The notes under the pieces are model-generated. The model was not told where the DNA came from. It did not search any database and was given only the letters and a program-made list of their open reading frames with translations. A DNA stretch of 64,000 nucleotides, from contig CAWFJP010000011.1 in NCBI GenBank assembly GCA_963816145.1, positions 288,001-352,000 on the forward strand. The letters run 5' to 3'. A program made the translations under genes and the position numbers. Positions 39,275-59,125 of the stretch are shown here, piece after piece (positions within the stretch are counted from its first letter, which is position 1; each line of letters begins with the position of its first letter). Origin of the DNA: an uncultured delta proteobacterium (GTDB lineage Bacteria > Desulfobacterota > Binatia > UBA9968).

Positions 39275-40198
39275 ATGGCGGCGATGATACCTGGACCTAA
39301 CGATTTCCGCGTGCGCTTTTGGGGCGTGCGCGGCAGCTATCCCACCACCGGCCAAAGCACCAGCGAGATCGGCGGCGACACCTCTTGCGTTGAAATCAGC
39401 GTCGCCGGCCAGCGACTCATCTTCGACGCCGGCACTGGCATCATTCCCCTCGGCAAAGCGATTTGCCGGCGTGCCGCGAGCCATCCCACGAGTTACGTAT
39501 TTTTGAGCCATACGCATATCGATCACTTGCTGGGGCTGTATTTTTTTGAACCGCTACTGACCGCAGGCGCCCGGTCGTTTATTTACGGTCCGGGCCGGTC
39601 GAACGGTGCCTTGCAGCAAACCTTGCAGCAGTTGACCCACAGCAATCTTTTTCCGGTCACCTTCGATGATCTCAAGGGTAAGATCGAAGTTCACTCACTT
39701 GGCGGCGGCGAGACACTGCGATTTGGCGCGCCGGGCAAGCGGCTAACGGTACGTAAGCATCCACCAGCGCGCCAGAACCCGAATGGCGAATTGTCGATCA
39801 CCACCCATCAGAGCCAAGCCCATCCGCGTGAGGGCGTGATGCTTTACCGCATCGAATACCGCGGCAAGACTCTTGTCTACGCGACCGACGTCGAACAGCG
39901 GCCGGGCGGCTATACCGACGTCATCGCGTTTGCCGATGGCGCCGACATGCTGATTCATGACGCGCAGTATTTGCACGGCGAGTATTATTCCCGGACCAAG
40001 TCGAAAAAGGGTTGGGGCCATAGCACCATCGAAATGGCCGCCGAAGTCGCCGCCAAGGCGCGAGTCAAACAGCTCGTGCTGTTTCATCATGAACCGCAGC
40101 ACGACGATTCGGCGATGCGACGCATCGCCCGGCTCGGTAAAAAATTGTTCCCTGGCTCGATCGTCGCTTCTCAAGGATTGGAGTTGAAGCTGCTGTGA
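39275..40198 (+). CDS. MBL-fold metallo-hydrolase (RNase Z / phosphodiesterase-like)
   Basis: FWGVRGS.P, GGDTSCV, DAGTG, SHTHIDH, HDAQY, GWGHS and LFHHEP motifs. Confidence 0.9.
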   Translation: MAAMIPGPNDFRVRFWGVRGSYPTTGQSTSEIGGDTSCVEISVAGQRLIFDAGTGIIPLGKAICRRAASHPTSYVFLSHTHIDHLLGLYFFEPLLTAGARSFIYGPGRSNGALQQTLQQLTHSNLFPVTFDDLKGKIEVHSLGGGETLRFGAPGKRLTVRKHPPARQNPNGELSITTHQSQAHPREGVMLYRIEYRGKTLVYATDVEQRPGGYTDVIAFADGADMLIHDAQYLHGEYYSRTKSKKGWGHSTIEMAAEVAAKARVKQLVLFHHEPQHDDSAMRRIARLGKKLFPGSIVASQGLELKLL

Positions 40199-41190
40199 TC
40201 GCCAAGCTGACATCACGCAGGGCAGGCGCACTGCATGCATTTGCCCTTCTGCTTATCCTCACCACGGTCGCACCGGCCCAAGCCCAGACAAAAGCACGCA
40301 TCGGCGTGCTGTTGCCGGAGCTCGGCCGGGCTCAGTCCCAGTCCGTCAAAGGATTGAACGAAGAACTCAAGCGATTAGGTTTCATCGAGCGCAAAAATCT
40401 AATTGTCGAGACCCGCAACGCCAAAGGCGACCGCGGCGCCTTGCGTCCTGCCGCCGACGAACTAATAGCGCGCAAAGTCGAGATCATTTTTACCACCGGC
40501 ACCCGCGCGACCATGGCGGCGGCCGGCGCCAGCACTGACATTCCCATCGTATTTGTCCATCCCGGCGACCCGGTCGCCGCCGGCATGGCAAAAAGTATGG
40601 GCGAGCCGCCGCGCAACATAACCGGCATCGCCGGCTTCGCTGTCGAGAAGACCGAGAAACGTTTAGCGTTATTGAAAGAACTGATTCCCGAGCTGCGCGA
40701 AGTGCATATCTTTTTCGATAGTAACAATAATTTTTCCCGTGACAACTTCGCAATTGCCCAGGCTGCGGCAAAAAAACTTGGTCTGCCGGTGATCGAACAT
40801 GGCGTCAAGTCCGCCGACGAACTGAAGACGACTCTCAGCAGCTTGCGCACCGCGCCGGGCGTGGCGCTATTTCACGTACCCGACGACCTGGTCGAAGGCG
40901 AAGCGGAGTTCATCTTCAAGACTGCTCGGCAGAAGAAATTGCCGAGCATGTTCAACGAAGAATCCTGGGCGATCCTAGGCGCCACTGCGGCCTATGGTCC
41001 GAGCTACCTTGACATGGGGCGGCGCGCCGGGGCTATGATCGGGCGCATCTTGAAAAATCCCAAGAGCGCGCTGCCGGCCATCGAACGGGCCGAAAAGTTC
41101 GAGTTCGTCATCAACTACCGGACGGCAAACTTCATGGGCTTGCAATTGCCGCCGGCGGTCTTGAAGCGTGCCGACAAGGTCATCCGCTGA
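40195..41190 (+). CDS. ABC_sub_bind (PF04392-type) substrate-binding protein
   Basis: Signal peptide, IPIVF..GDPV..G, NITG, KRL.LLKE and C-terminal FEFVIN..TA..GL.LP..L.RADKVIR. Confidence 0.9.
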   Translation: MIAKLTSRRAGALHAFALLLILTTVAPAQAQTKARIGVLLPELGRAQSQSVKGLNEELKRLGFIERKNLIVETRNAKGDRGALRPAADELIARKVEIIFTTGTRATMAAAGASTDIPIVFVHPGDPVAAGMAKSMGEPPRNITGIAGFAVEKTEKRLALLKELIPELREVHIFFDSNNNFSRDNFAIAQAAAKKLGLPVIEHGVKSADELKTTLSSLRTAPGVALFHVPDDLVEGEAEFIFKTARQKKLPSMFNEESWAILGATAAYGPSYLDMGRRAGAMIGRILKNPKSALPAIERAEKFEFVINYRTANFMGLQLPPAVLKRADKVIR

Positions 41191-41201
41191 GCCGAACCAC
41201 C

Positions 41202-43835: not shown

Positions 43836-43844
43836 CGCGACACC

Positions 43845-45188
43845 ATGGCGAGCAAAATCCTCATCGTCGACGACGAACCGTTCAACCTCGACCTGCTCGA
43901 ACAGGAGTTGGCCGATCTTGGCTATGTAACGGAGCGGGCGAACAATGGTGCTCAAGCATTGCAAAAAATCGCCAGAGCTAATCCCGATCTAGTCCTGCTC
44001 GATTATCAGATGCCCGACATGAACGGCATCGAAGTGCTGCGCAACGTCCGTCAGACGGACAAAGACTTGCCAGTGGTTTTGATCACCGCCCATGGCAGCA
44101 TCGAACGCGCCGTCGAAGCGGTCAAAGCCGGTGCCGACGACTTCATCACCAAGCCATTCGATCCCGAACACTTGGCCGTGGTCGTCAAAAAAGCTCTCGA
44201 TCGCGCCCAGCTCAAACAAGATGTTGAATTCTTCGCTCAGGAACTGGGCGGCCGCAACCATCTGGTGGCGGGCGACAGCGCCGCCATGCGCGGCATCATC
44301 GACGAAGCGAAAAAAGCCGCGGCTAGCAAATCGACGGTACTGCTCTTGGGTGAAAGCGGCACGGGCAAGGAACTGTTCGCCCGCTCGATCCACGACTGGA
44401 GCGAACGCCGGTTAAAACCCTTCGTCGCCATCAACTGCGCCGGCCTCGCCAAAGAACTCCTCGAAAGCGATTTGTTCGGCCATGAGAAAGGCGCCTTTAC
44501 CGGCGCCCATCAATTGAAAAAGGGCAAGCTGGAATTTGCCCATGGCGGCACGGTGTTTCTCGACGAGATCGGCGATCTGGCGTTGGAGCTGCAAACCAAG
44601 CTCTTGCGCGTCTTGCAGGAACGCGAGTTCGAACGGGTCGGCGGGACAACGAAGATCAATGCCGATCTGCGCATCATCGCCGCCACCAATCGCGATCTCG
44701 AAACCGCGGTCAACGCGGGCACTTTCCGCGCCGATCTTTATCACAGACTCAACGTCATCGCCGTGACGCTGCCGCCGCTGCGCGAGCGCAAAGACGATAT
44801 TCCCGCCTTGGCGAATTATTTTTTGCAACGCTGCGCCGCCGATACCAAGAAGAACTTTTCGACCATCGCCGACGACGCCCTGGAAAAACTCCTGGCCTAC
44901 AGTTGGCCGGGCAACGTCCGGGAACTCGCCAACGTCATCGAGCGCGCCGTGGTTTTGGGCGACGGTCCGCAACTAACACTGCACCATCTCCCCGCCCGAG
45001 TGGTCGGCGCCCAACCGCCCGGCGGTTCCGAGGTAATATCGTTCCACGACGCCATCAACAGTTACCGCCGCGAACTCATCGTCCGCGCCCTGGCAACCAC
45101 CCAAGGCAACCGCGCCAACGCCGCCAAGGCGCTGGGCATGCACCGCACCCACTTCATGAAGCTACTCAAAGCGCTGCAAATCACCTAG
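43845..45188 (+). CDS. sigma54-dependent response regulator (NtrC family)
   Basis: Receiver, [28 protein letters not shown] and a C-terminal Fis-type HTH. Confidence 0.95.
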
Positions 45189-45193
45189 AAAAC

Positions 45194-45267
45194 GGTAAGG
45201 CGTGAGGGGTAAAGGGTTAGACGTTTTTCGACCCCGACGCCTCACCCCTTACCCTTTACCCCTTACG
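45194..45267. repeat. inverted heptamer-repeat element, empty form
   Basis: GGTAAGG CGTGAGG GGTAAAG GGTTAGA ... CCTCACC CCTTACC CTTTACC CCTTACG. Confidence 0.8.
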
Positions 45268-45416: not shown

Positions 45417-45432
45417 TGGTACAGCCATTGCG
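45417..45432 (+). promoter_or_regulatory. sigma54 -24/-12 promoter
   Basis: TGGTACAGCCATTGCG with GG-N10-GC spacing and TTGC; lies between the NtrC-type gene and the SBP genes. Confidence 0.65.
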
Positions 45433-45548
45433 CTAGTGAAGCTTGGAAACTCTATGTGCTCTGTGTGTCCGCAGGTCGCTATCGTTCGCCAATATCCTGG
45501 TTGCTCGTTTCACCGATGCAGCCCAGCCGGAAGGTTGCGCAAAATTTT

Positions 45549-46523
45549 ATGATTACTAAGTTTACCCTAGTCATCGCCATGTGGCTGGTACTGCTTGCTC
45601 CGCCCGCCCGCGCGCAGCAGGCCAACAAACAGCCCCGGGTTGGATTTCTCGCGGCTGGCGGCTCCAACATCCCCGAACCGTTCGTACAAAAGCTGCGCGA
45701 TCTGGGTCATATCGATGGGTCTAATATAGCCTTTGAACTGCAAACGAGGCGCAACCCAAACAGCGATTGGTCCGAACCAGTAGCCCAACTCATCAAACTG
45801 AAAGTCGACATCATCGTCGCCGACGGCTCGGGTCCGGCCACCGCCGCCATGAAAGCCACCAAAACGATTCCCATCGTCATGACCAGCAGCACCGATCCCG
45901 TCGGCATCGGCCTGGTCGCCAGCCTGGCCCAGCCCGGCGGTAACGTCACCGGCCTGTCGAGCGTCAGCGGTGAGTTGGGCGGCAAGCTGTTGGAGATTTT
46001 AAAGGAGATCATGCCCCGCCTCACGCGCGTCGTTGTCCCCGGACCGCCGCCCGGCAGTACGACACAAGATCTATTCATGAAGGAAAGTGTGGCGCCCGCC
46101 CAAGCGCTCAAAGTGGAACTGATCCGCGTTACCGTGCGTGGATCGGAAGACTACGACCAAGTTTTTCAAACCGCCGCCAAAAGAAAGGCTCAAGCGCTGG
46201 TCGTGCGCATCCCCGCCAGTATTCCGCCGGTCCAACGCCAGCAGTTCACCCAACTGGCGGCCAAGCATCGTCTGCCAGCGATGTATCAAGCCACCAACTG
46301 GGTCGCCGCCGGCGGCCTGATCTCTTACGGCGCCGATCGCACCCATCAGTTCCAACGCAGCGCCATCTATGTCGACAAAATATTGAAAGGCGCCAAGCCC
46401 GCCGATCTTCCGATTGAGCAGCCCATGAAGTTCGAGTTTGTGATAAACCTAAAAGCCGCCAAACAGATCGGCCTGACGATCCCGCCGAATGTGTTGGCGC
46501 GGGCGGATCGGGTGATCCGGTAG
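45549..46523 (+). CDS. ABC_sub_bind substrate-binding protein
   Basis: Signal peptide (ARA-QQ), TIPIVM..DPV..GLVASLA.PGGNVTG and ILKGAKPADLP...RADRVIR. Confidence 0.9.
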   Translation: MITKFTLVIAMWLVLLAPPARAQQANKQPRVGFLAAGGSNIPEPFVQKLRDLGHIDGSNIAFELQTRRNPNSDWSEPVAQLIKLKVDIIVADGSGPATAAMKATKTIPIVMTSSTDPVGIGLVASLAQPGGNVTGLSSVSGELGGKLLEILKEIMPRLTRVVVPGPPPGSTTQDLFMKESVAPAQALKVELIRVTVRGSEDYDQVFQTAAKRKAQALVVRIPASIPPVQRQQFTQLAAKHRLPAMYQATNWVAAGGLISYGADRTHQFQRSAIYVDKILKGAKPADLPIEQPMKFEFVINLKAAKQIGLTIPPNVLARADRVIR

Positions 46524-46558: not shown

Positions 46559-47548
46559 ATGAAGATAAAAAGATTTTCTGCCGCTCTTGGCAGTGTTCTT
46601 CTGACATGTTCCACAATGCCAAGGCGCAGAGCCGGCGAAGAGTCCTGCGCATCGGCGTCTTGCTGTCCGGTTCACACCGTCCGTGTCATCAGCGCGCATT
46701 ACGAGCATTTCAGCAGGGCCTCCGTGATCTTGGCTATGTCGAAGGAAAAAATCTCGTCATTGAATACCGGTATGCCGACGGTGAAGTTAGATCCCGTGCC
46801 AGCATCTTTGCGGCTGAGCTGGTGAGCCTCAACGTTGATGTCATACTCACAGATACTTCGAATGCCACTCAGGCGGCCAAGAACGCGACCAGGACCATTC
46901 CGATAGTATTTACAATGGCCAACGATCCCGTCGCGGATGGTCAAGTGACCAGCCTGGCGCGACCAGGCGGGAACCTCACCGGGTTTTCGATCCTCGCCAT
47001 CGACCTGAATGGAAAGCGGCTTGACCTTCTCAAGGAGAGCGATTCCCAAGGTTACAAGGGTAGGCTTTCTCACGAGAATGGGCACAACGCTGGCGAAACG
47101 TTTCGAAGGAAGCCGACGCCGACGCCAAAGGATTGGGCTTGCGTTTACACTTTCTTGGGGCAAAAGGCGTCGAAGGATCTCGAAAGTGTATTCGAAGCGG
47201 CAAAACGCGAGGGGTTCAGGCCGTTCTTGCGCACCCAAGCACATTCGTTGCGACGAACCGGGCCAGTATAATCGCCCTCGCAGCAAAGTCCCGGCTACCG
47301 GTGATGTTACCCAAACACGGATTATGTCGAGGCCGGCGGCCTGATGAGCTACGGAGCCAGATGCTATCGATGACTATCGACGTGCCGCCGGCTATGTCGA
47401 CAAGATATTCAAAGGCACCAAACCCGCGGATCTCCCGGTCCAACAACCGATGAAGTTCGAGTTTGCGATCAACTTGAAAGCGGCGAATGCGATCGGTTTG
47501 ACTATACCTCCCAACCTGCTCGCGCGGGCGGATCGGGTGATTCGATAG
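46559..47548 (+). pseudogene. ABC_sub_bind substrate-binding protein, multiply frameshifted
   Basis: LGYVEGKNLVIEYRYA, SLARPGGNLTG and the RADRVIR tail are spread over several frames; decay versus read errors unresolved. Confidence 0.8.
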
Positions 47549-47593
47549 GTGCGAACAATGAGGCGAAACCAGCCCATCGCCACTCGTAGGCCA

Positions 47594-47981
47594 TTAGAGC
47601 GGATAGATGGGGAAACGCAGCGCGCGGGCGGCGGTGATCATGCGCTCGTCGTAGCTCGCCAAGGCAACAGTTTTGTCCTTGTTTGTGCAGAAAATCGAGC
47701 GCCGCCAAGTGGAGCGCATCGAGAGTTCTGACCGGACTTGGAAAAGGTTCCAGTGCCCGCGTCAATACCGGTGGTGCGAGCTCGACCAAGGCGACACGCC
47801 CCAACAACGAGCGCACTTCGTCGGCATGCGATCGGCCGAGCTTGCGGGCGTTGATGCGCGTCCAGATCTCGTATTCAAGGAGCCGGCTGGAGATCAAGTG
47901 CTCGTCCCAAAGTTTTTCTGGCGGCGAGCGGTCTTCGGCGAGGAGATGCGCCAGCGCCACCGAAGTATCGAGATAAATCAA
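47594..47981 (-). CDS. PIN-domain (VapC) toxin, +1 insertion near 47672
   Basis: MIYLDTS and RTLDALHLA; the C-terminus ..ALASYDERM..FPIYPL* is restored by removing one base from a homopolymer. Confidence 0.85.
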
Positions 47982-48268
47982 CGCTCGCTCCGGTCGTCAT
48001 CCAGTTCACGTTTGAGGTCGCGAAAGAGCATCACTGGATTGCGCGGCGGCACGCCCTTCGACGACAACGCGGGCGGCATAATCCATCCCTGGCGCACCGC
48101 CTCGGCCAACATCGCATCGGCAAGCACCGGACTGCGGCTCGGCTCCGGCGGCACGATCTCGGCAACCACACGGTCACGATCCGTCACCAGAATCGTCTCG
48201 CCACGCTCGGCCAAGCGCACGTACTCGCTGAGCTTGTTCTTGAGAACTTTCAAACCTACGGATCGCAT
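47978..48268 (-). CDS. Phd/YefM-family antitoxin
   Basis: VG...LKNKLSEYV..AE.GE.ILVT.R..VAEI.P; overlaps the toxin start (ATGA). Confidence 0.9.
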   Translation of the reverse strand: MRSVGLKVLKNKLSEYVRLAERGETILVTDRDRVVAEIVPPEPSRSPVLADAMLAEAVRQGWIMPPALSSKGVPPRNPVMLFRDLKRELDDDRSER

Positions 48269-48275
48269 ACAAGAG

Positions 48276-48305
48276 ATTGTAGCTACTAGTAGCTACCTAC
48301 GTCAA
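48276..48305 (-). promoter_or_regulatory. TA promoter with palindromic operator; probably a leaderless transcript
   Basis: TTGACG-N18-TACAAT; perfect palindrome GTAGCTACTAGTAGCTAC at 48279-48296; ATG 7 nt after the -10. Confidence 0.75.
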
Positions 48306-48489
48306 GACAATGGATTATGGCAGACCCAGAGAGATTTCTGGAGATTGGGGCGGTCAACGGCTTGTTGTCGTCACAATCACTATATCTTCGGCGAGGTTTT
48401 TGTCGGCTCCATGCTACCAAGCAAGTCCGCCTGCAGCGCGGCGCAAAGCAAGCCGGACACTTGCAGTGTACGGATTACTCGGCGGACCA

Positions 48490-48583
48490 AAGTCTAAATG
48501 CCGGCGAAAGTAAGACTGCCTGGCAGATCGGCGTGACCATTCCGCAGTCGGCGCTCTTCCGGGCGGATCGGGTGATTCGATGA
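48490..48583 (+). pseudogene. orphan 3' remnant of an ABC_sub_bind gene
   Basis: KTAWQIGVTIPQSALFRADRVIR* with no recognisable upstream body. Confidence 0.75.
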
Positions 48584-48741: not shown

Positions 48742-48990
48742 ATGTCCGCCGCGACAAAGATCACCGCGAAATTTCAGATCACGTTACCCCGAGAAGTGCG
48801 CCGCGCGTTAAAGGCCAAGGTCGGGGACTTATTGGTCTTCGTACAACAGGCGGATGGTTCGTACAGGATACAAGCCGTACCGCCGCGGCTAACCGACGCT
48901 CTTCGGCTGGCCGGCAGCCGATTATCTCCCGGAAACTTCCTGCGGGTGCACCGGGAGTTCGAAGAAGGTTGGGAAGATGAGCGAAGCTAA
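48742..48990 (+). CDS. AbrB/MazE/SpoVT-family antitoxin
   Basis: KITAKFQITLPREVRRAL...GD.L.F pattern. Confidence 0.9.
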   Translation: MSAATKITAKFQITLPREVRRALKAKVGDLLVFVQQADGSYRIQAVPPRLTDALRLAGSRLSPGNFLRVHREFEEGWEDERS

Positions 48991-49438
48991 TGATGGTCCG
49001 CTGGCGTGTTTGGACGCCAACGTCTTTCTCGCCGCGCTGATTCCGGAAGCGACCAAAGCTCCCAAGGACGAGATATTAGGTTCGGCGCGGGTACTCAGGG
49101 CGCTCGAAGAAGGGCGCTTGCGGTGCGTATCCACGGCGATCCTCCTGGGTGAAGTCCGTTATGTCTATCTTCGCGAGGATAAAGCAGGTTTTGAAATCGC
49201 CAGAGCAGCGATCGAAGCGGAGACCGGCATGCGCTTGTTAAGCGTGACCGCATCGTTGGCCATTCACGCCGCCGAGTTACGCCGAAAATACTATTCGAAA
49301 AAGAACGCTTTTTCCTACAACGATGCCCTTTATCTAGCGACGGGATTAGCGGAACACGCCGAGCTGCTGATTACCACCGACCCGCATCTGTTGAACGTTG
49401 CCGAACTGAAGACGTTACGGCCAAGCCAGTACCGTTAA
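48977..49438 (+). CDS. PIN-domain (VapC) toxin
   Basis: CLDANVF, S...L.EV, SYNDALYLAT and LITTD motifs; overlaps the antitoxin gene. Confidence 0.88.
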   Translation: MSEANDGPLACLDANVFLAALIPEATKAPKDEILGSARVLRALEEGRLRCVSTAILLGEVRYVYLREDKAGFEIARAAIEAETGMRLLSVTASLAIHAAELRRKYYSKKNAFSYNDALYLATGLAEHAELLITTDPHLLNVAELKTLRPSQYR

Positions 49439-49844: not shown

Positions 49845-52781
49845 ATGAATTTTAGAGACTTGCCGGTAATTCGCTACTTCGCCGGGCGCCAGCGCGGCCG
49901 GCTGATGCGCGATTACTTTTTGATCTCGGTATTGCTGGTCGGCAGCGGGCTGGTGACCAGCGGCGCCATCGAGATCTACTACCGCTATCTCGAAAGCCAG
50001 GAGACCCTGGCACTGTTGCAGCGCGAGGTCGCCGCCGGCGCCGCTTTCAAGATCGAGAACTTCGTCCAAGATATTCACAGCACGCTGCGCGGCGCCACGC
50101 GCAGCCGGGAGATCGCGCCCAAGGGGCTGACCAACGATTTTCGTTTCGAGTTGGAAAAGCTTTTATTGATCGCACCGTCGATCACCGAGGCGATCGCGCT
50201 CAATCAAGACGGCGGCATCCAGGTCCAAGCATCTCGACTGCGCACGGTGCTGCCTGACGTCAAACGCGACTTCGCCAATTCACCGCCATTCCTCCAGGCC
50301 AAAAAAGGTCAATCCTACTTCGGCCCGGTTTACTTTGTGCGCGGCTCAGAGCCCTACATGACCATCGCCGTGCCCATCGAACGCTTCGCCGGCGACGTCA
50401 TCGGCGTGCTCCAGGCTGAGGTCAATCTCAAATACATCGGCGACGTGGTGTCGAATTTGAAAATCGGCCAAGCCGGCTACGCCTACGTCATCAGCCGCAG
50501 CGGCGAACTGATCGCCCACCCCGATATCAGTTTGGTCTTGCAGCGGCGTAACGTCGCCAAGTTGGAATCGACCAAAGCCGCTTTCACCCCGGCCGACCAA
50601 AGGCCAAAGCGCCAAGCTCTGGTCACGCCCAACGTCCAAGGCAAAAAAGTCTTGACCGCCTCGGCTCAAGTGAGCGGACTCGATTGGGCGGTCATCGTCG
50701 ACCGGCCGGTGGAAGAGGCCTATGAGCCGCTTTACGCGTCGGTCTTGCGCACCTCCACCGTGCTGCTATTCGGCCTCGGACTGGCGCTCATGGCGAGTCT
50801 GTTCATCGGCCGGCGCGTCGTCCGGCCGGTCGGCATCCTGCGCGAGGGGGTCGAGCGCATCGGCAAAGGCGATCTGAGCCATCGGTTGGATCTCAAAACC
50901 GGTGACGAGATCGAAGTCCTGGCCGACGAATTTAACAAAATGACTTCCCAGCTCCAGGAGTCCTACAGCAACTTGGAGCAAAAGGTCGAAGACCGCACCA
51001 AGGAATTGACCGAGTCGCTGGAGCAGCAGACCGCCACCAGCGAGATCCTGGGCGTCATCGCCAGCTCGCCGACCGACATCCAACCGGTGCTCGATGTCGT
51101 GGCTGAGAGAGCCGCGCGCTTGTGCGACGCCAGCGACGCGCAAATCCTGCGCATCAACGGTGAAATAATTCGCTGCGTCGCGGGCTTCGGCTCGCTGCCG
51201 GCGGTGCAAGACACACCGCTCAAACGCACTTGGCCCGGCAGCCGGGCGATCATCGACCGGGACACGATTCATATTCACGATCTCGCCGCGGTGGTCGATA
51301 CGGAATACCCGGATGTCAAAGCGTTTCAGCAACAGTGGGGGCACCGCACCGTGCTGGCGACGCCGTTGTTACGCGAAGGCATTCCGATCGGCGCGATTCT
51401 AATCCGGCGCATGGAAGTGCGGCCGTTCAGCGAAAAGCAGATCGCCTTACTGAGAACTTTCGCGGACCAAGCGGTGATCGCCATCGAAAACGTCCGGCTA
51501 TTCCAAGAATTGGAAACCAGAAACCGTGAAGTGACGGAATCTTTAGAGCAACAGACCGCGACCAGCGAGATCTTGGGCGTCATCGCCAGCTCGCCGAGCG
51601 ATCTGCATCCGGTCTACCAAACCATACTCGCCAACATCACGCGCCTGTGCGAGTCCAACATCGCCGCGCTGTTTCTGTGGGACGGCCAGACCCTGAGCAC
51701 CGCGGAAAGCTACGGCACCACCGAGGCGTTCGCCGCGCACTTGAGAAGCAGCCGTCCCCGTCCAGGTCATGAAACTTCCACGCGGTTGGCCGCCCTCGAA
51801 GGGCGCATCGTTCATGTCCTCGACCTATTGAACGACCCAGCCTTCGCGCCGAACCCGCGTGAACTCTATGAGCAGGAAAACGTCCGCACGGTAATTTCGG
51901 TGCCGATGCTACGGGAAAATCAATTGGTCGGAGTCATGACGACCTGGCGGCGCGAGAGCAGAGCGTTCAGCGACAAGCAGATCGCCTTGCTCAAAACCTT
52001 CGCCGATCAGGCGGTGATCGCCATCGAAAACGTCCGCCTGTTCCGCGAGCTCGGTGAGAAGAACGACCAGTTGGAAGCCGCCAACAAACACAAATCTCAG
52101 TTCTTGGCCAATGTCAGCCACGAGCTGCGCACGCCCTTGAACTCGATCATCGGCTTCACCCGCATCGTGCTGCGCCGCACCGAGGGTAAGATCGATCAAC
52201 TGCAAAAAGACAATTTGCAAAAAGTACTGGTCAGCTCCGAGCACCTGTTGAGCCTGATCAACGAACTGCTCGATCTGGCCAAAATCGAAGCCGGGCGCAT
52301 GGATGTTTACTCTGAGAACTTCAAGCTCGAAGAAGTCATGCGCATCGCCACCGCCACCGTCGAGCCCTTGCTCAAAAACGGCAACGTCAAGCTGGTTACG
52401 GAAATGCCGCCGGACTTGCCGCCACTCAAATCCGACCGCGACAAGTTGAAGCAGATTGTTTTGAATCTGCTCAGCAACTCGGCCAAATTCACTGAAAAAG
52501 GCGAGATCAAAGTCGCCGCCGTGCGCGACGACGGCATGCTCCGGCTCACGGTCTCGGACACCGGTATCGGCATGAATGCCGAAGCCCTGAAATACATCTT
52601 CGACGAGTTCCGCCAGGTCGACATGTCGACGACCCGAAAGTACGGCGGCACCGGCCTCGGCCTCGCCATCGTCAGACGTCTCGCCCAGCTCCTCGGCGGC
52701 GACATCACCGTCGCCAGCGAAGAAGGCAAAGGCTCCCAGTTCACCGTGACCATACCGATGGAGCTGAAAATACAATCGTGA
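49845..52781 (+). CDS. membrane sensor histidine kinase (Cache-HAMP-GAF-GAF-HisKA-HATPase)
   Basis: Two TM helices flank a Cache domain (YAYVI..G.LIAHPD); HAMP (GDEI..LA..FN.M); two GAFs ending FADQAVIAIENVRLF; SHELRTPL, NLLSNSAKF, DTGIG and GGTGLGL boxes. Confidence 0.93.
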   Translation: MNFRDLPVIRYFAGRQRGRLMRDYFLISVLLVGSGLVTSGAIEIYYRYLESQETLALLQREVAAGAAFKIENFVQDIHSTLRGATRSREIAPKGLTNDFRFELEKLLLIAPSITEAIALNQDGGIQVQASRLRTVLPDVKRDFANSPPFLQAKKGQSYFGPVYFVRGSEPYMTIAVPIERFAGDVIGVLQAEVNLKYIGDVVSNLKIGQAGYAYVISRSGELIAHPDISLVLQRRNVAKLESTKAAFTPADQRPKRQALVTPNVQGKKVLTASAQVSGLDWAVIVDRPVEEAYEPLYASVLRTSTVLLFGLGLALMASLFIGRRVVRPVGILREGVERIGKGDLSHRLDLKTGDEIEVLADEFNKMTSQLQESYSNLEQKVEDRTKELTESLEQQTATSEILGVIASSPTDIQPVLDVVAERAARLCDASDAQILRINGEIIRCVAGFGSLPAVQDTPLKRTWPGSRAIIDRDTIHIHDLAAVVDTEYPDVKAFQQQWGHRTVLATPLLREGIPIGAILIRRMEVRPFSEKQIALLRTFADQAVIAIENVRLFQELETRNREVTESLEQQTATSEILGVIASSPSDLHPVYQTILANITRLCESNIAALFLWDGQTLSTAESYGTTEAFAAHLRSSRPRPGHETSTRLAALEGRIVHVLDLLNDPAFAPNPRELYEQENVRTVISVPMLRENQLVGVMTTWRRESRAFSDKQIALLKTFADQAVIAIENVRLFRELGEKNDQLEAANKHKSQFLANVSHELRTPLNSIIGFTRIVLRRTEGKIDQLQKDNLQKVLVSSEHLLSLINELLDLAKIEAGRMDVYSENFKLEEVMRIATATVEPLLKNGNVKLVTEMPPDLPPLKSDRDKLKQIVLNLLSNSAKFTEKGEIKVAAVRDDGMLRLTVSDTGIGMNAEALKYIFDEFRQVDMSTTRKYGGTGLGLAIVRRLAQLLGGDITVASEEGKGSQFTVTIPMELKIQS

Positions 52782-52819: not shown

Positions 52820-53185
52820 ATGGAGAAACCGCATAAGAAACTCGATGCGTGGAAAGTAGCAATGGACCTAGTCCTTGATATTTATCGTTCGATTGAAACA
52901 TTTCCCAAAGATGAAAAATACGGTCTCGTCGATCAGATTCGTAGAGCAACGATCAGCGTTCCAAGCAATATCGCAGAGGGTGCGGCGAGGCAGACAAAAA
53001 AAGAATTTGCGCAGTTTCTTCATATCGCCCAAGCATCGCTCAGTGAGTTGGATACTCAGGTCGAGCTGGCGCGCCGCCTCGGATATCTAAGTGAATCTAG
53101 TTGGCAAGATCTCGACTTGAAAATGGATAGAATCGACAAGTTGGTCACGGGACTTATCAATCACCTAAACAAGACTGAAAGGTAA
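52820..53185 (+). CDS. four helix bundle protein (23S rRNA IVS protein family)
   Basis: L.AW..AM.L, FP.DEKYGL..QIRRA..SVPSNIAEG..R and F..FL.IA..SL.EL.TQ pattern. Confidence 0.92.
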   Translation: MEKPHKKLDAWKVAMDLVLDIYRSIETFPKDEKYGLVDQIRRATISVPSNIAEGAARQTKKEFAQFLHIAQASLSELDTQVELARRLGYLSESSWQDLDLKMDRIDKLVTGLINHLNKTER

Positions 53186-53221
53186 AAGCGGGCCTAAGGC
53201 ATAGGGCGGCGTCCGAGATCG

Positions 53222-53249
53222 CCTTACCCCTTACCATTCACCCCTTACG
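53222..53249. repeat. right heptamer arm flanking the four-helix-bundle gene
   Basis: CCTTACC CCTTACC ATTCACC CCTTACG, inverted relative to 52777-52804. Confidence 0.8.
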
Positions 53250-53270
53250 AATCAGTCTAAAGGAGCCTCC

Positions 53271-53636
53271 ATGGCAAAGAAAAAGATATTGGTCGTCGAC
53301 GACACTGAATTTAACCGCGACCTGGTCGTGCAACTGCTGGAAGAGGACTACGACATGGTGATCGCGGAAAATGGCGCGGAGGCTTTGACTGTAAGCGCGA
53401 AGGAACGGCCGGATTTGATCTTGATGGATCTGGGCATGCCGGTGATGGACGGCTGGGAAGCGACCCGGCGGCTCAAGGCTAACGACGAATTGAAAAATAT
53501 TCCGGTCATCGCCGTTACTTCCCATGCCATGGTCGGCGACGAGATCGAAGCACGCAAAGCCGGCTGCGACGATTATCTGCCCAAACCCATCGACGACGAA
53601 CTGCTGATGAAGAAGATCAAAAACTTCATCGGATGA
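53271..53636 (+). CDS. single-domain response regulator (DivK-like)
   Basis: ILVVDD, PDLILMD..MP.MDGWEAT, VIAVT.HAM.GD and AGCDDY..KP motifs. Confidence 0.92.
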   Translation: MAKKKILVVDDTEFNRDLVVQLLEEDYDMVIAENGAEALTVSAKERPDLILMDLGMPVMDGWEATRRLKANDELKNIPVIAVTSHAMVGDEIEARKAGCDDYLPKPIDDELLMKKIKNFIG

Positions 53637-53678
53637 TGCCATTATAGATTTTCGAATTGAGTTTGGCGGAACCAAAGT

Positions 53679-54779
53679 GTGACGGTGGCGGCTCGGTTAA
53701 CAATTTTGCAGTATGATTTACGCACTCCGCAGTTTGTAGATCCGATTAGGCAATGGGCCGCTCGGTTGTTTCCGAACTCCGACAATCCAAAATCCAAACT
53801 CCAAAATCTAAAATTGTTGAAGTTCTTTGCAATCGTTTTCCTTATCCTCCTCGGCAACACAGTCGCGGCACAGAACCCATCAAAGCTCTCTAAGATCGGC
53901 TGGCTCTCCGCCGTCTCCGGTCGCAGCCGAGGGCAAGAGGAAATTATTAGTCGGCTCCGCGAGCTCGGCTATGTCGAGGGCAAGACTGTCGTTTACGAAT
54001 TTCGCTACGCCGACACCAAGCTCGACCGTCTTCCCGCACTCGCTGGCGAGCTGGTTCGTCTTAAGGTCGATGTACTCATCGCCCCTGGTACCCCCGGCGC
54101 CCTGGCTTTGAAGAAGGCTACCAAGACGATCCCGATCGTTTTTGCCGACGTGACCGATCCGGTCGCTGCCGGATTGGTCGACAGCCTGGCCCATCCCGGC
54201 GGCAACATCACCGGCTTCAGCAGCGTCGAGTCCCTGCTCGCCGGCAAACGGTTGGAGATTCTGAAAGAAACCGTTGCAAAACTCACCCACGTTGCGGTGC
54301 TATGGGATCCACGCAATCCGAGCTCGAAGCTAGAGTGGCAAGACAGCCAGGTGGCGGCGCGCGAACTCGGCTTGCAACTTTACTCGCTGGAAGTCAGCAG
54401 CGCCGACAAGTACGAGAGCGCGTTGCGCGAGGCAAGCAAGTCCCATAGCGGCGCACTCTCCGTGCTGTCGACCCCATTGGCCGCCGCCCAACAAGAACAA
54501 ATCGTCGGCCTGGCGATGAAATACCGCCTGCCGGCGATTTATGTTCAAGAAAACTTCATCACCAGCGGCGGATTAATGTCCTATGGACCGAATCAAAGCG
54601 AACGCTACAAGCGCATCGCGGTTTTTATCGACAAGATTTTAAAGGGCGCCAAGCCCGCCGACCTCCCCGTCGAGCAGCCGACCAAATTTGAATTCATCAT
54701 CAATCTCAAGGCTGCGAAGCAAATCGGATTAACGATCCCGCCTAATGTTTTGGTCAGAGCGAACCGGGTGATTCAGTGA
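53679..54779 (+). CDS. ABC_sub_bind substrate-binding protein (true start probably further downstream)
   Basis: LGYVEGK, DPVAAGLVDSLAHPGGNITG and RANRVIQ tail. Confidence 0.88.
   Translation: MTVAARLTILQYDLRTPQFVDPIRQWAARLFPNSDNPKSKLQNLKLLKFFAIVFLILLGNTVAAQNPSKLSKIGWLSAVSGRSRGQEEIISRLRELGYVEGKTVVYEFRYADTKLDRLPALAGELVRLKVDVLIAPGTPGALALKKATKTIPIVFADVTDPVAAGLVDSLAHPGGNITGFSSVESLLAGKRLEILKETVAKLTHVAVLWDPRNPSSKLEWQDSQVAARELGLQLYSLEVSSADKYESALREASKSHSGALSVLSTPLAAAQQEQIVGLAMKYRLPAIYVQENFITSGGLMSYGPNQSERYKRIAVFIDKILKGAKPADLPVEQPTKFEFIINLKAAKQIGLTIPPNVLVRANRVIQ
53784..53814. repeat. tandem heptamers AATCCAA
   Basis: AATCCAA AATCCAA ACTCCAA AATCTAA AAT; degenerate complementary arm at about 53641-53666. 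Confidence 0.7.
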
Positions 54780-54861
54780 TAGGCTACACCAAATTCCAGC
54801 CAGACTTACCGTCGGAACGAGTGCGCTCAAAGAACCCCAGCCAAAAGTAAGGACCCAGATA

Positions 54862-55847
54862 TTGCTAAAAAAACTATCGTTGTCAGTGCTCGTTGTTTCT
54901 CGTGCTCATAATTGCTGAATCGGCCCAAGCGCAGCAGGTTAAGATCCCCCGATTGGGATTTCTCATCGCCAGTTCGGCGCCGGTGCAAAAGCCGCGCTTG
55001 GAAGCGTTCCGCCAGGGGTTGCAGGCGCTGGGCTACGTTGAAGGCAAGAATATTCTGATCGATTACCGCTACGCCGAGGGCAAACCAGAGCGCTTGCCCG
55101 TCGTTGGCGGCGGAGCTGCTGCAACTGAATGTCGACATCATCGTTGCCGCTGGCGGTTCGCCGCCGGCGCAGGCGGCTAAGAACGCCACCAAAACGATCC
55201 CCATCGTCATGACCAATCCAGCCGATGCCGTCGGCGACGGACTAGTCGCCAGCCTGGCCCACCCCGGCGGTAATGTTACCGGCATCAGCACGTTTGCGCC
55301 GGAGTTGAGCGGCAAGCGGCTGGAGCTCCTTAAAGAGATGTTGCCGGGAATTTCCCGGGTGGCGGTGCTGGCCAATCGGGAGTTTCAAGGTTACGGGGCG
55401 CAGGCCAAAGAGATCGAAGCCGCGGCCCACGCTTTGGCGCTCAATTTAAAATTCGTCGAGGTGCGCGGAGCCAATGATCTCGACAACGCCTTCGCGGCGA
55501 TCTCGACGGCGCGCAGCGGCGCCATCCTGACCTTGAGCGATCCGGTGACTTTCACTCTGTTAAAACGCATCGTCGAAATGTCGATCAAGAATCGCGTGCC
55601 GTCCATGCATTTGCAGGCGGAGTACGCCGAAGCCGGCGGCATGGTTGCCTATGGACCGAGCTACGCCGAGCTGTACCGCCGCGCCGCGACCTACGTCGAT
55701 AAGATCCTCAAAGGTACGCCGCCGTCCGACCTGCCGGTCGAACAGCCGACCAAGTTTGAATTCATCGTGAATTTGAAAACCGCCAAGCAGATCGGCGTGA
55801 CAATTCCACCGAACCTACTCGTGCGGGCAGATCGGGTCATCAAATAG
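54862..55847 (+). CDS. ABC_sub_bind substrate-binding protein, frameshifted (near 54892 and 55098)
   Basis: ORFs 54893-55180 and 55104-55847 join into one typical protein if one C is removed from ttgcccgtcg. Confidence 0.85.
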
Positions 55848-55853
55848 CAGTGT

Positions 55854-55962
55854 TGAGGACTGAGTCAATGAGGACTGAGCTAAATTCATCTGAACGGCGA
55901 AACGGACCGGCTGACGTGTCACGACCAAGAACCTCAGCGCTCGTCGCTCGTTACTCAGTCCT
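55854..55962. repeat. degenerate inverted heptamer element overlapping an SBP 5' end
   Basis: TGAGGACTGAG..TGAGGACTGAG ... CTCAGCGCTC..ACTCAGTCCT. Confidence 0.6.
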
Positions 55963-56920
55963 TTGCGTTGCGCTTAGCGCTTTGCTCTTGCCTTTTGGCT
56001 CCCCCACCAAGGCGCAGCAGCCCGGTAAAGTTCCGCGCGTCGGTATGCTCTTCATCGGTGGCCGTGACCAGCCGCACCTGGAATCGTTCAAGCAAGTCCT
56101 GCGCGAGCGCGGCTATATCGAGGGCAAGAATATCCGTTTCGAATACCGCTATGCCGAAGGCAAAGAGGATCGGCTCGATCAACTCGCCGCCGAGCTGGTT
56201 CGGGACAAAGTCGACGTGATCGTGACCACGGCATCGATCAGCGCGCTGGCGGCGCGCAAGGCGAGCCACTCGATACCGATCGTGATGACCAGCGGCAATC
56301 CGTTGGAGATGGGGCTGGCCAAGAGCCTGGCGCAGCCCGGCGGCAACGTCACGGGTCTCACGGTGATGCTGTCGGACTTGAGTAGCAAGCGATTGGAGAT
56401 CCTCAAAGACACTTTGCCCAAGATGACCCGCGTGGCCGTGCTCTGGACGCCACAGAACCGGGAATCCAGCATAGGGTTTGATGAAACGGCAGCGGCGGCA
56501 AAAGCCTTTTCCCTGCAGCTGCAAGCAGCGCCGATTCAATCCGCCAATGACTTGAACCAGGCGTTTGCGGAGATGTCCAAAGCCCAGGTCGGCGGTTTAG
56601 CCGTAATCTTATCGCCGCTCGCGACGCTCCACTCCAAACGCATTGTCGAGCTCGCTACCAAACACCGCGTGGCTGGGATATATCCGACTCGCCAATTCGC
56701 CGAGGAAGGCGGCCTGATGGCATACGGTCCCCTGATCGGCGACCTCTACCGGCGCGCCGCTGTGTATGTCGACAAGATTTTAAAAGGCGCCAAACCGGCT
56801 GATCTTCCGGTCGAGCAACCGATGAAGTTCGAATTCATCGTCAACCTCAAAACCGCCAAGCAGATCGGCGTGACGGTTCCGCCCAACGTGTTGGTGCGGG
56901 CGGATCGGGTGATCAGATAG
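55868..56920 (+). CDS. ABC_sub_bind substrate-binding protein
   Basis: GYIEGKNI.FEYRYAEG, SLAQPGGNVTG and RADRVIR tail. Confidence 0.9.
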   Translation: MRTELNSSERRNGPADVSRPRTSALVARYSVLCVALSALLLPFGSPTKAQQPGKVPRVGMLFIGGRDQPHLESFKQVLRERGYIEGKNIRFEYRYAEGKEDRLDQLAAELVRDKVDVIVTTASISALAARKASHSIPIVMTSGNPLEMGLAKSLAQPGGNVTGLTVMLSDLSSKRLEILKDTLPKMTRVAVLWTPQNRESSIGFDETAAAAKAFSLQLQAAPIQSANDLNQAFAEMSKAQVGGLAVILSPLATLHSKRIVELATKHRVAGIYPTRQFAEEGGLMAYGPLIGDLYRRAAVYVDKILKGAKPADLPVEQPMKFEFIVNLKTAKQIGVTVPPNVLVRADRVIR

Positions 56921-56970
56921 GCGTGAGCCATGAGGCGCGAGGCTTGAGTTAAATCCGCGGAGTGAAATTC

Positions 56971-57946
56971 ATGATGCAAAAAATATGTGGCTTGTTAATG
57001 GCAACTGTGTTGCTATCACCCGTTTCTGGTGCCGCCGCGCAGCCGGAGAAAATCCCGCGCATCGGTGTAATCCATATGGGCGGCGTGCTTGGCACGGTGG
57101 CCGACGGCTTGCGCGCGGGGCTGAAAGAGTTGGGGATTGAAGATGGCAAACAGATCGTCCTGGACGTCCAGGATCTCAAGGGCGACGCCAAGGGTGCCGA
57201 AAGCCTGGCGCAAAAGTTTGAGCAGGACAAGGTCAAATTGATTTTCACCAACACCCAGCCGGTGACTACGGCAGCGATGAAGGCGACCAAGAATGTGCCG
57301 ATCGTGTTTGCCGTCGGCACCGATCCAGTGGCACACGGTTACGTTCAGAGCTTCGCCAGACCGGGCAGCCGGCTCACCGGCATCCACTACCTGGCGCGAG
57401 ATCTCACCGACAAGCGCCTGGAGATTCTTAAAGAGTTTCTCCCCAAACTGCGCACGATAGTCACATTCTACGATCCGAACGAATGACGTCTCGGTCCAAG
57501 CCGCAAAAATCGGACGCGACGAGGCGCAGAGGCAAAATGTCAAATTCATCGAGCGAAAAATCAAGTCCATTGACGAACTCAAAGCCGAGCTCGACGGCGT
57601 CAAGGCCGGCGAGTTCGATGCCTACCTATATGTCGCCGACGCCAGAGTGGCGAGCCAGGCGCAGCTCGTCATCGATACAGCGAGCGCCAAGAAATTGCCG
57701 ACCATGTTTCACGATCAGGCTTTGGTCGCGAGCGGCGCCCTGGCGAGCTATGGCCAGAGTTATTTCGAGATCGGCCGGCGCTCGGCGAAGTACGTGCGCC
57801 AGATTCTCAACGGCGTTTCACCCGCCGATCAGCGAGTGGAGACCATCGAAGATGTCGAGCTCGCGTTTAACTTGAAAACCGCCAAGGAAATCGGCGTGAC
57901 GATCCCGCCGAACGTGCTCACGCGCGCGGCCAAGGTGGTGCGGTGA
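56971..57946 (+). CDS. ABC_sub_bind substrate-binding protein, frameshifted at about 57481
   Basis: ORF 56962-57486 continues in the frame of 57647-57946 after removing one G (gatccgaac-g-aatgac). Confidence 0.85.
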
Positions 57947-58039
57947 TTAGCCACACGTGAACAACCGTCACACCGGCGCTCTGCAATCTTTGTCCGACAA
58001 TTCAAAATCGAAACAATTCAAAATGGTAATGGGTGATTT

Positions 58040-59125
58040 ATGCCAAACAAGATCTTAATCGTCGACGACGAGCCGTTTAATCTCGATCTGCTCGAACAGG
58101 AGCTGATGGAGTACGACTATGTGCTCGAGCGCGCTACGGATGGGGTGGACGCGCTGGAGAAGGCCGACCGTTTCGCTCCGGACATCATTCTGCTCGACTA
58201 CATGATGCCGAAGATGAACGGTCTCGAGGTCGTCAAAGCGCTGCGCCAGAGCGAGCGCCACAAGAGCGTGCCGGTCATTCTCCTAACCGCCAAAGCGACC
58301 CAGGAAGACAAGGTCGCCGGCCTCGACGCCGGCGCCGATGACTATGTCACCAAGCCGTTCGATTCCTTCGAGCTGCTGGCGCGGGTGCGCGCAATGCTGC
58401 GCATCAAAGAGCTGCATGACCAGCTGGAAGAGTGGAACCGCACCCTGGCCGACAAAGTTCGGACACAGGTGGAAGAGATTCAACACATGGGGCGGCTCAA
58501 GCGCTATCTGTCGCCACAGATCGCTGAGTCCATCTTGCGCAACGACGAGGATTTATTCAAAACCCATCGTCGTGAGATAACCATCGTATTTCTCGACCTG
58601 CGCGGCTTCACGGCGTTCTCAGACAACGCCGAACCCGAGGAGGTCATGGACTTTCTCCGCGACTATCATGCCGAGATGGGCAAGCTGATTTTCAAATTCG
58701 AAGGCACGCTGGAACGTTTTGTCGGCGACGGCATCGTGGTGATCTTCAACGATCCGCTGCCCTGCGAAGACCATGGCCACAAAGCCGTCAGCATGGCGAT
58801 CGAAATGCGCGACCGGGTCAAAGAACTGCGCGTCGCATGGATCAAAAAGGGTTACCACCTCGATCTCGGCGTCGGCTTAGCGACCGGCTACGCAACTCTG
58901 GGTACCATCGGCTTCGAGGGACGCATGGATTACAGCAGCGTCGGCAATTTGCCCAACCTCGCGGCGCGCATGTGCGCCGAGGCCAAGGGTGGCCAGATCC
59001 TCACGGATCAAAAAACCATGAGCCGGCTGGACGATGCGTTCGACAGCGAAGCGTTTGAAGAGTTTCAGTTGAAGGGACTAAGCCGGCCGGTGAAAGTTTT
59101 TAACATCGTCGGCATGAAGGAGTAG
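58040..59125 (+). CDS. response regulator receiver fused to a class III nucleotide cyclase
   Basis: Receiver plus coiled coil, then VFLDLRGFT, GTLERFVGDG and RMDY..VG..PNLAAR. Confidence 0.92.
   Translation: MPNKILIVDDEPFNLDLLEQELMEYDYVLERATDGVDALEKADRFAPDIILLDYMMPKMNGLEVVKALRQSERHKSVPVILLTAKATQEDKVAGLDAGADDYVTKPFDSFELLARVRAMLRIKELHDQLEEWNRTLADKVRTQVEEIQHMGRLKRYLSPQIAESILRNDEDLFKTHRREITIVFLDLRGFTAFSDNAEPEEVMDFLRDYHAEMGKLIFKFEGTLERFVGDGIVVIFNDPLPCEDHGHKAVSMAIEMRDRVKELRVAWIKKGYHLDLGVGLATGYATLGTIGFEGRMDYSSVGNLPNLAARMCAEAKGGQILTDQKTMSRLDDAFDSEAFEEFQLKGLSRPVKVFNIVGMKE

Follow-up and report, generated by a model that had tools for sequence, protein, structure and literature searches.

Gene content and layout of the locus

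The 64,000-nucleotide stretch of uncultured delta proteobacterium DNA analysed here (the window; contig CAWFJP010000011.1) carries, at positions 39275-59125, a series of genes for substrate-binding proteins (SBPs) of the PF04392 family. These are interspersed with genes for a sensor histidine kinase, receiver (REC) proteins and a membrane carrier provided with a cyclic nucleotide-binding (cNMP) domain. The original prediction, made from the sequence alone, described a self-contained signalling locus. Pfam searches recovered every part that it had named: a metallo-beta-lactamase (MBL) fold hydrolase, SBP1, the cNMP-DASS carrier, an NtrC-type activator, the kinase, a lone receiver and a receiver-cyclase, all encoded on the plus strand. 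Likewise as predicted, families of ABC permeases and ATPases had zero matches among the 18 open reading frames (ORFs) scanned in the locus with Pfam. The first genes are tightly spaced. Those for MBL protein and SBP1 overlap by 4 nt, and gaps of 11 nt and 9 nt separate SBP1 from the carrier and the carrier from the activator, respectively.

Mapping with intact SBPs (tblastn) detected seven PF04392 genes and one C-terminal remnant, the same count as originally proposed. A single inserted toxin-antitoxin (TA) pair had been expected as well. The insertion is present, but it comprises two pairs, MazE/AbrB-PIN on the plus strand and Phd/YefM-PIN on the minus strand. A 274-aa plus-strand ORF at 47673-48497, considered as a conserved gene without family, was rejected as a shadow of the latter pair, because the minus frame is better conserved in relatives and encodes Phd/YefM and PIN. 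Table 1 lists all features.

Table 1. Features of the locus (window positions) and evidence for their assignment
Feature	Position	Strand	Evidence
MBL-fold hydrolase, candidate (cyclic) nucleotide phosphodiesterase	39275-40198	+	PF12706 5.6e-20
SBP1, divergent binding protein with signal peptide	40195-41190	+	PF04392 1.3e-46
cNMP-DASS carrier (SLC13-type permease), 877 aa	41202-43835	+	PF00027 8.2e-27; PF00939 3e-37
NtrC-type activator, REC-sigma54 AAA+-HTH_8	43845-45188	+	Pfam
Sigma-54 type -24/-12 promoter, TGGTACA-N4-TTGC	45417-45432	+	Strict pattern match
SBP2, intact, first gene behind sigma-54 promoter	45516-46523	+	PF04392 1e-44
SBP3, interrupted in assembly	46606-47548	+	PF04392; tblastn
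PIN-domain toxin gene, C-terminal end in different frame	47502-47981	-	PF01850 1.1e-08, profile positions 1-98 of 120
Phd/YefM antitoxin gene	47978-48268	-	PF02604 7.1e-08
C-terminal remnant of PF04392 gene	48428-48583	+	tblastn
MazE/AbrB antitoxin	48742-48990	+	PF04014 3.3e-07
PIN toxin paired with MazE/AbrB	48977-49438	+	PF01850 3.5e-14
Sensor histidine kinase, 978 aa: TM-dCache_1-TM-HAMP-2xGAF-HisKA-HATPase	49845-52781	+	Pfam
23S_rRNA_IVP / four-helix-bundle protein, between kinase and receiver	52820-53185	+	PF05635 2e-38
Stand-alone receiver (REC)	53271-53636	+	PF00072 1.3e-28
SBP4, intact; mature part from ~53871	53679-54779	+	PF04392 2.2e-52
SBP5, one frame change near 55101 in assembly	54821-55847	+	tblastn
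SBP6, intact	55850-56920	+	PF04392 2.9e-48
SBP7, one frame change near 57482	56962-57946	+	Pfam, tblastn
Receiver fused to class III nucleotidyl cyclase	58040-59125	+	PF00072 1.7e-31; PF00211 3e-23

Conservation of the gene combination

Species representatives were scanned with the carrier protein as query. This yielded 25 loci, 23 of which encode near-full-length carriers (53-91% identity); their record titles read uncultured delta proteobacterium, Syntrophobacter sp., Candidatus Binatia and similar. Of 22 testable loci, 21 have the SBP1 gene directly upstream of the carrier gene, L088 being the exception. The MBL gene lies upstream of SBP1 or of the carrier in 18 of 20; L077 and L087 lack it. 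Orthologues of the receiver-cyclase (73-91% identity) are present in 13 of 15 loci; L077 and L088 lack them and 8 loci end too early to count. The kinase has an orthologue in 12 loci, is absent in the same two, and the other loci again end too early. Ten relatives have the lone receiver and the cyclase directly behind the kinase.

Two gene orders were observed. The five closest relatives keep the order of the window, MBL-SBP1-DASS-EBP-SBP-HK-REC-SBP-cyclase (EBP being the activator and HK the kinase). Relatives with about 70% identity display the order [SBPs]-kinase-(IVP)-REC-cyclase-MBL-SBP1-carrier-(activator)-ahpC-dsbD-folE-pepA. Since both orders keep the same set of genes, the parts have been held together through block rearrangement, and their conservation in relatives indicates that the arrangement goes beyond chance. 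Recurrence of the combination in at least some relative was what the original prediction depended on; it is seen among the carrier relatives.

PF04392 genes accompany dCache kinases

The kinase contains transmembrane (TM)-like segments at residues 24-42 and ~298-326, with the dCache_1 domain between them. Four close relatives share 93-95% identity with its periplasmic part. The SBP genes around the kinase vary in number from 0 to 4 among relatives, with fragments.

The first 400 residues of the kinase were searched against 301 genomes of the phylum. Matches at E <= 1e-20 were obtained in 55 of them and 15 flanks were examined. At G291:C230, G291:C42, G034:C7, G201:C4, G276:C130 and G216:C4, the kinase homologue is directly preceded by a PF04392 gene on its own strand. 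G291 is a sister genome of the same family, 100% complete. Behind its SBP-kinase pair on C230 come REC and an activator with 59.5% identity to that of the locus, and on its contig C172 a PF04392 gene lies ~0.9 kb upstream of a kinase. Four tandem SBPs precede the kinase at G201:C4 (a fifth is on the opposite strand) and two at G276:C130. G034:C119 was left out of the adjacency count, as the contig ends 169 nt upstream of the kinase. Further adjacent pairs occur at G220:C24, G206:C3 and G049:C157, and PF04392 and kinase genes are non-adjacent in G014, G033, G093, G026, G171, G223, G072, G140, G246, G036 and G294. A stand-alone REC also lies behind the kinase in G291, G201 and G034.

Kinase loci account for all PF04392 genes of G291 (3/3), G201 (5/5) and G276 (2/2), for one of two in G216 and for one of three in G034. 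None of these kinase-locus genes shares a contig with a match to the permease family PF02653. The neighbourhood comparison suggested with the original prediction thus shows PF04392 together with dCache kinases, not permeases, in relatives.

A complex of the kinase periplasmic domain (20-row alignment) with mature SBP4 (52 rows) was also predicted. The scores, 0.01 and 0.14 against a mark of 0.32, are evidence neither way. The NKFDE-type motif of cNMP-binding GAF domains was not found in the kinase, so that nucleotide feedback on the kinase is unsupported.

Concerning the gene behind the kinase, 23S_rRNA_IVP is encoded directly after it in the locus, at the same place in L081 (2322-2681) and L085 (6118-6471), and after a kinase with a PF04392-like domain on contig C31 of the source genome (L020:7593-8051). 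One 23S_rRNA_IVP gene lies near the G034 SBP-kinase pair (L055:6914-7240).

PF04392 family in the source genome and in the phylum

The source genome (7.82 Mb, 31 contigs, 99.47% complete, 6.72% contamination) contains 73 PF04392 matches in 21 clusters, including runs of 23 on contig C3 and 10 on C8. Its ten PF02653 permease matches form five pairs, and no PF04392 gene adjoins any of these. This speaks for the original prediction. The nearest PF02653 pair lies 9.5 kb from the C3 array, with its own Peripla_BP_6 protein and two ATPases.

Surroundings of the clusters were examined by scanning 344 ORFs in 20 flanks. Genes for amidohydrolases, hydantoinase pieces, ornithine cyclodeaminases and acyl-CoA enzymes surround most clusters. 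Other families (TctC, NMT1, SBP_bac_8) contribute many orphan SBPs to these surroundings too: TctC genes occur in runs of up to seven around one TctA, and numerous NMT1 and SBP_bac_8 genes are interspersed with those for catabolic enzymes (L006, corresponding to C3:761026-780900; flanks L001-L020). Hydantoinase B fragments are present at both ends of the 23-hit C3 array (L007:12680-13933; L008:19021-19975).

Several clusters include modules paralogous to the locus. On C14 (~562-566 kb), two broken SBPs are followed by a dCache-HAMP kinase 55% identical to the locus sensor (residues 15-389) and by a broken activator. Elsewhere on C14 (~426-431 kb), a broken SBP occurs together with a creatininase, a GAF-GAF kinase of 42% identity and an activator that is 62% identical to that of the locus. 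A fragmented GAF kinase precedes SBPs on C8 (~7-13 kb), and a paralogous kinase on C9 has beside it an SBP remnant that shares 90% identity with the SBP4 end. The PF04392-like domain on C31 is fused to the kinase itself, and on C24 a PF04392 match lies within a 653-aa frame. Some paralogous modules are distributed over several ORFs, namely six GAF/kinase pieces on C8 (L012, 6012-25999) and receiver and lid pieces on C14 (L016, 553296-573222). Such splitting reflects either decay or assembly indels in these families.

In the phylum, PF04392 was found in 128 of 301 genomes. First-look candidates numbered 1-16 per genome among the matches listed, versus 85 in the source genome. Five relatives with the cNMP locus hold 14, 23, 44, 55 and 105 PF04392 matches, which makes the expansion characteristic of this clade of large genomes. 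Elsewhere in the phylum, tandem fusions were observed in which two or three PF04392 domains share one frame of ~940-1260 aa (e.g. G140:C16:30814-33543 and G234:C48:32498-35314); these are possibly sensors.

To estimate relationships, a quick-method tree was constructed from 52 full-length SBPs (unrooted, with SH-aLRT support only; ORFs <290 aa and one overlapping 445-aa ORF were omitted). SBP2, SBP4 and SBP6 fall into one 40-row clade (support 99) with 35 other copies of the source genome and with two SBPs of G291 that adjoin kinases. SBP1 lies outside on a long branch and shares 29-33% identity with the other locus SBPs. On the simplest reading of these sequences, the expanded PF04392 family may descend from kinase-linked ancestors. 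The locus SBPs score 114-149 bits with the NCBIfam TrpX equivalog NF041285, below its cut-off of 390.

Integrity of the SBP genes

Four SBP genes of the locus are certainly intact (SBP1, SBP2, SBP4 and SBP6) and up to seven may be. PF04392 E-values of the intact copies include 1.3e-46 (SBP1) and 2.2e-52 (SBP4). The locus SBPs have hydrophobic N-termini with AxA-type end sites, as read from the sequence. Solved chains closest to SBP4 are 3LKV (9.1e-32), 3LFT and 6HNI. The ATG of SBP2 at 45516 is conserved in relatives, and its orthologues in L067, L068 and L070 are 80-84% identical. The remnant at 48428-48583 matches the final 23 residues of SBP6 with 74% identity and SBP2 with 41% over 54 residues (tblastn); a similar SBP remnant stands immediately before the kinase in the relative L068.

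SBP3 reads through frames 1, 3, 1 and 2 and contains a stop codon. The breaks were compared with short metagenome contigs of related strains. An independent contig of run X6 has one base fewer exactly at 55101, the site of the SBP5 break, and a contig of run X1 displays five indels relative to the assembly at 47037-47106, within SBP3. As these contigs differ from the assembly at the break sites, the breaks may partly be assembly errors or strain-specific, or else may reflect real decay. Among Pfam-scanned window ORFs outside the PF04392 family none appears split, indicating that the breaks are concentrated in the PF04392 paralogues. Coverage gaps and apparent joints linking SBP 3' ends to distant sites were not used, their simplest cause being paralogue similarity or differing cassette content.

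Activator, receivers and sigma-54 promoter

The activator contains REC, a sigma-54 AAA+ domain with the GAFTGA loop at residue 216, and HTH_8, and a -24/-12 promoter is located nearby. It thus has the make-up of an NtrC-type enhancer-binding protein (EBP). Its REC is 55% identical to that of the cyclase over 120 residues, and residues 4-22 are identical in both. Helix alpha-1 of receivers carries much of their partner specificity. Because it is included in the identical stretch, it is reasonable to infer that the activator and the cyclase share one kinase.

Across the 64 kb of the window, the strict pattern TGG[CT]A[CT]-N5-TTGC matches just once, at 45417, which is 84 nt ahead of the SBP2 start. 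The promoter is found at the homologous place in all five close relatives that hold this spacer, with GG and TTGC elements invariant and the spacer letters variable. In L071, the gene next after the promoter is the kinase itself. In eight relatives of the other gene order, a relaxed sigma-54 pattern was not found before SBP, kinase or MBL genes. A loose scan allowing two mismatches gave 23 matches versus 32 expected by chance and is therefore uninformative; scans for sigma-70 promoters and terminators were at chance level. A conserved block downstream of the promoter is the start of SBP2.

In a soil metatranscriptome (run X16), contigs of 150-345 bases, 95-99% alike, cover 45720-46152, 50985-51329, 52458-52608 and 58282-58432 (SBP2, kinase and cyclase). 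At best they hint that a related strain expresses these genes, and DNA carry-over is possible.

Carrier, cyclase and MBL enzyme

The membrane part of the carrier matches PF00939 (Na_sulph_symp) with 129.2 bits, versus a gathering score of 27, and TIGR00785 with 128.1 bits, under the 198.6 cut-off. Its nearest solved chains are the exchangers DiT1 and DiT2.1 (E 1.4e-10 and 1.8e-09). The cNMP domain scores 93.5 bits with PF00027 (cut-off 27.5) and contains an FGE...RSA motif, which we take to be the phosphate-binding cassette with its Glu and Arg. In a structure model of residues 1-440 (mean pLDDT 74.6), a beta-roll, a 38-residue helix, a winged helix and TPR-like repeats precede the first TM helix. 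Carrier homologues contain PF25873 and TPR-family domains; 678 proteins match at E <= 1e-5.

The catalytic domain of the cyclase aligns best to CyaB (3R5G, 2.3e-37). Both metal aspartates and the transition-state Asn and Arg are kept in this alignment. Substrate of class III cyclases is specified by a pair of residues, Lys with Asp or Thr for ATP and Glu with Cys or Ser for GTP. The locus enzyme has Arg and Ser at these positions, and its product could be unusual to judge from these residues.

The MBL protein carries an HTHIDH metal motif and no signal peptide. It matches RNase Z models and the model for MBL-fold cyclic-nucleotide phosphodiesterases (class II PDE), NF041851, weakly, below their cut-offs (45.9 bits versus 400 for NF041851). 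Foldseek comparison of its structure model (mean pLDDT 75.1) placed the ElaC homologue 1ZKP, YhfI (6KNS) and RNase Z nearest, with yeast PDE1 (4OJV) and Apyc1 lower; the probability was 1.0 for 1ZKP, 6KNS, 1Y44, 4OJV and 7U2S. The protein thus shares the fold and the HxHxDH site of MBL phosphodiesterases (RNase Z/ElaC, Bacillus subtilis YhfI, anti-Pycsar Apyc1, yeast PDE1), but is just 12-21% identical to them and far below the NCBIfam cut-offs. The model is consistent with the candidate phosphodiesterase of the original prediction, putting the protein among nucleotide phosphodiesterases of the RNase Z/ElaC/YhfI type.

Remainder of the window

Outside the locus, the window contains housekeeping genes (rpoN, lptABC, kdsABC, pyrG, metK, ahcY, putA, folE, pepA). 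A 357-aa ORF at 7398-8471 on the minus strand has a nitrile hydratase alpha domain in its C-terminal half only and adjoins an asparaginase-like ORF of 571 aa. An Rfam search of 38500-59900 with E up to 0.1 gave zero matches.

Proposed function of the locus

On balance, we lean towards the view that the locus represents one conserved signalling-and-transport unit, built on an older module of PF04392 proteins, dCache kinase, receiver(s) and sigma-54 activator. This is based on gene content, conservation of the combination, the promoter, integrity of domains and absence of cognate ABC genes. Physical interactions, direction of phosphotransfer, nature of the nucleotide and ligands are proposed from these observations.

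In such a unit, exported PF04392 proteins without ABC partner would bind periplasmic ligands and dock on the dCache domain of the kinase, similarly to LuxP-LuxQ and HptA-HptS. The kinase would then phosphorylate three receivers. The NtrC-type activator would fire the sigma-54 promoter before the SBP2/kinase operon, which may provide positive feedback and control the SBP supply. The receiver-cyclase would produce a cyclic nucleotide, and the lone receiver may serve as a sink or modulator. Transport would be switched when the nucleotide binds to the cNMP domain at the N-terminus of the carrier, a DASS protein of exchanger type, and the neighbouring RNase Z/YhfI-like MBL enzyme would degrade the nucleotide. 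SBP1, apparently coupled in translation to the MBL gene and encoded in front of the carrier, might serve the carrier or be a second sensor. The core idea, two-component signalling that depends on SBPs and branches through a second messenger to a carrier, appears plausible from the genes but unproven.

Several observations weigh against this reading. Small ligands are usually bound by dCache domains directly. In the assembly, interruptions affect three of the seven SBP genes, and of the copy adjoining the kinase only a remnant is left. SBP2, SBP4 and SBP6 are each nearer to copies elsewhere in the genome than to one another; because they share a clade with about 36 copies beside catabolic genes, there is no separate signalling subfamily of SBPs. 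About 50 SBP paralogues lie mostly beside catabolic genes. Kinases of the locus family adjoin just 3 of 16 other PF04392 clusters (those outside the window and outside the fused-domain matches), and six more distant kinase homologues (L060-L065) have no neighbouring SBP. An exchangeable receptor repertoire for one kinase, as originally proposed, therefore goes beyond the evidence.

The activator is found directly after the carrier in 7 loci and is absent in 9 of the 16 with enough sequence (7 loci are too short). Arg and Ser of the cyclase stand where CyaB has Lys and Thr. Genome-wide there are 15 matches to PF00211 class III cyclases and 12 to the PF00027 cNMP domain, so that cross-talk is possible and the nucleotide is not private to the locus. 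To call the locus self-contained was thus an overstatement. Finally, G291 holds the SBP-kinase-REC-activator module and gave no match with the DASS domain as query, which suggests that the cyclic-nucleotide arm is an add-on.

Alternative explanations

The SBPs could be outputs of the system rather than its inputs. The kinase would sense a small molecule through dCache, and SBPs induced by the activator would scavenge substrates either for the DASS carrier, in the case of SBP1, or for permeases whose genes lie elsewhere. Position of the conserved sigma-54 promoter directly before SBP2, attachment of SBP1 to the carrier gene in nearly all testable loci, and location of most paralogues among amidohydrolase, hydantoinase, acyl-CoA and other catabolic genes all speak for such a role, as does the binding of aromatic amino acids for ABC importers by solved PF04392 proteins, according to the available text of PMC10443332. 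It is opposed by the complete lack of PF04392 genes beside the five PF02653 pairs, and by G291, G201 and G276, where all PF04392 genes belong to kinase loci without a transporter gene. Moreover, in the sample of the phylum, 22 other DASS genes have no PF04392 gene in their 1.5-kb flanks, and the carrier of L088 is without SBP1. We regard this explanation as possible, though on the unlikely side.

Alternatively, two arms may be independent neighbours in this clade, an SBP-kinase-activator system and an operon of cyclase, phosphodiesterase and cNMP carrier. G291 with its first arm alone fits this, as do L088 (MBL and carrier alone), L087 (without MBL) and the many other cyclases and cNMP domains of the genome. 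However, the arms stay together through the rearrangement of block order and across 53-91% identity, the first 22 residues of the cyclase receiver are nearly the same as those of the activator, and the lone receiver and cyclase directly follow the kinase in the ten relatives mentioned above. Mutual independence is thus quite improbable.

That the SBP arrays are by-products of birth-and-death expansion of paralogues, with no role in the locus, agrees with the 73 matches in the genome (14-105 in five relatives), with the fragments and remnants in the window and relatives and with the variation from 0 to 4 SBP genes beside the kinase, but is very improbable given four intact copies with signal peptides, absence of the SBP5 break from an independent contig, preservation of SBP2 at 80-84% identity behind a conserved promoter, and an SBP-kinase adjacency that is old and spans the phylum.

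Comparison with known systems

Returning to the favoured unit of signalling and transport, its closest counterparts are sensor kinases with dCache-like periplasmic domains that are stimulated by SBPs, such as LuxP/LuxQ, HptA/HptS and ChvE/VirA; in AioX/AioS/AioR, a sigma-54 activator is the final component (Matilla et al. 2021, PMC8050422, available text). Similarly, locus SBP genes have exported products and stand beside a kinase gene, not a transporter gene, two TM helices of the kinase enclose a bimodular periplasmic alpha/beta domain, and the output is an NtrC-type activator as in AioXSR. Thirteen SBP families are given in that review of SBP-stimulated receptors, and the term 'ABC_sub_bind' has 0 occurrences in its available text (PMC8050422); in this respect PF04392 of the locus differs from the systems covered there. 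In addition, the locus has several paralogous SBPs per kinase with dozens more in the genome, and its output would be branched to a receiver-cyclase.

Three solved PF04392 members bind Trp, Tyr and Phe, according to the available part of PMC10443332. The locus SBPs belong to the same Pfam family as these SBPs of TrpX-type ABC importers (3LKV, 3LFT, 6HNI), but they have no permease or ATPase partner and stay below the NCBIfam TrpX cut-off.

Expansion of orphan binding proteins is known for the Bug/TctC family of Bordetella. There, as here, orphan SBPs are in large surplus over membrane partners, and one Bug/TctC protein is known to communicate with a kinase, BctC/BctE being listed as a signalling pair in the accessible portion of PMC8050422. 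On the contrary, SBP family and kinase sensor domain differ from those of the locus, and the orphan PF04392 proteins seem to be derived from kinase-linked copies.

The carrier shares its DASS membrane domain with DiT1 and DiT2.1 (9MCR, 9MCU). It differs from these in the cNMP domain at its N-terminus, in its winged helix and TPR arm, and in the periplasmic SBP gene that precedes its own. A plug-in cytoplasmic regulatory domain relates it to transporter fusions with regulatory domains (PMC10710835). The available text of that work reports cNMP domains on MFS carriers only, uncharacterised, and proposes post-translational control of secondary transporters by second messengers from domain fusions, with no characterised case reported.

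The original prediction knew of no described system with this combination. Literature searches on PF04392, SBP-kinase signalling and cNMP-DASS transporters agree, yielding no description of it in the text available, and titles and abstracts on COG2984/K01989 include none on signalling.

Implications

A more far-reaching interpretation can be formulated. The orphan PF04392 proteins of the clade (14-105 matches per genome), without any ABC partner, would be swappable ligand adaptors converging on a few dCache kinases. In the locus described here, their signal would be turned into a cyclic nucleotide gating a DASS carrier served by SBP1, which would add a third type to the SBP-dependent secondary transporters TRAP and TTT. 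We consider this speculative and rather improbable at present. If the favoured model of a signalling-and-transport unit is right, PF04392 would join the SBP families that feed sensor kinases, and a role would be explained for the large sets of transporter-less binding proteins in soil bacteria. The locus would then also represent a compact case of a two-component system that turns an outside signal into a cyclic nucleotide acting directly on a membrane carrier.

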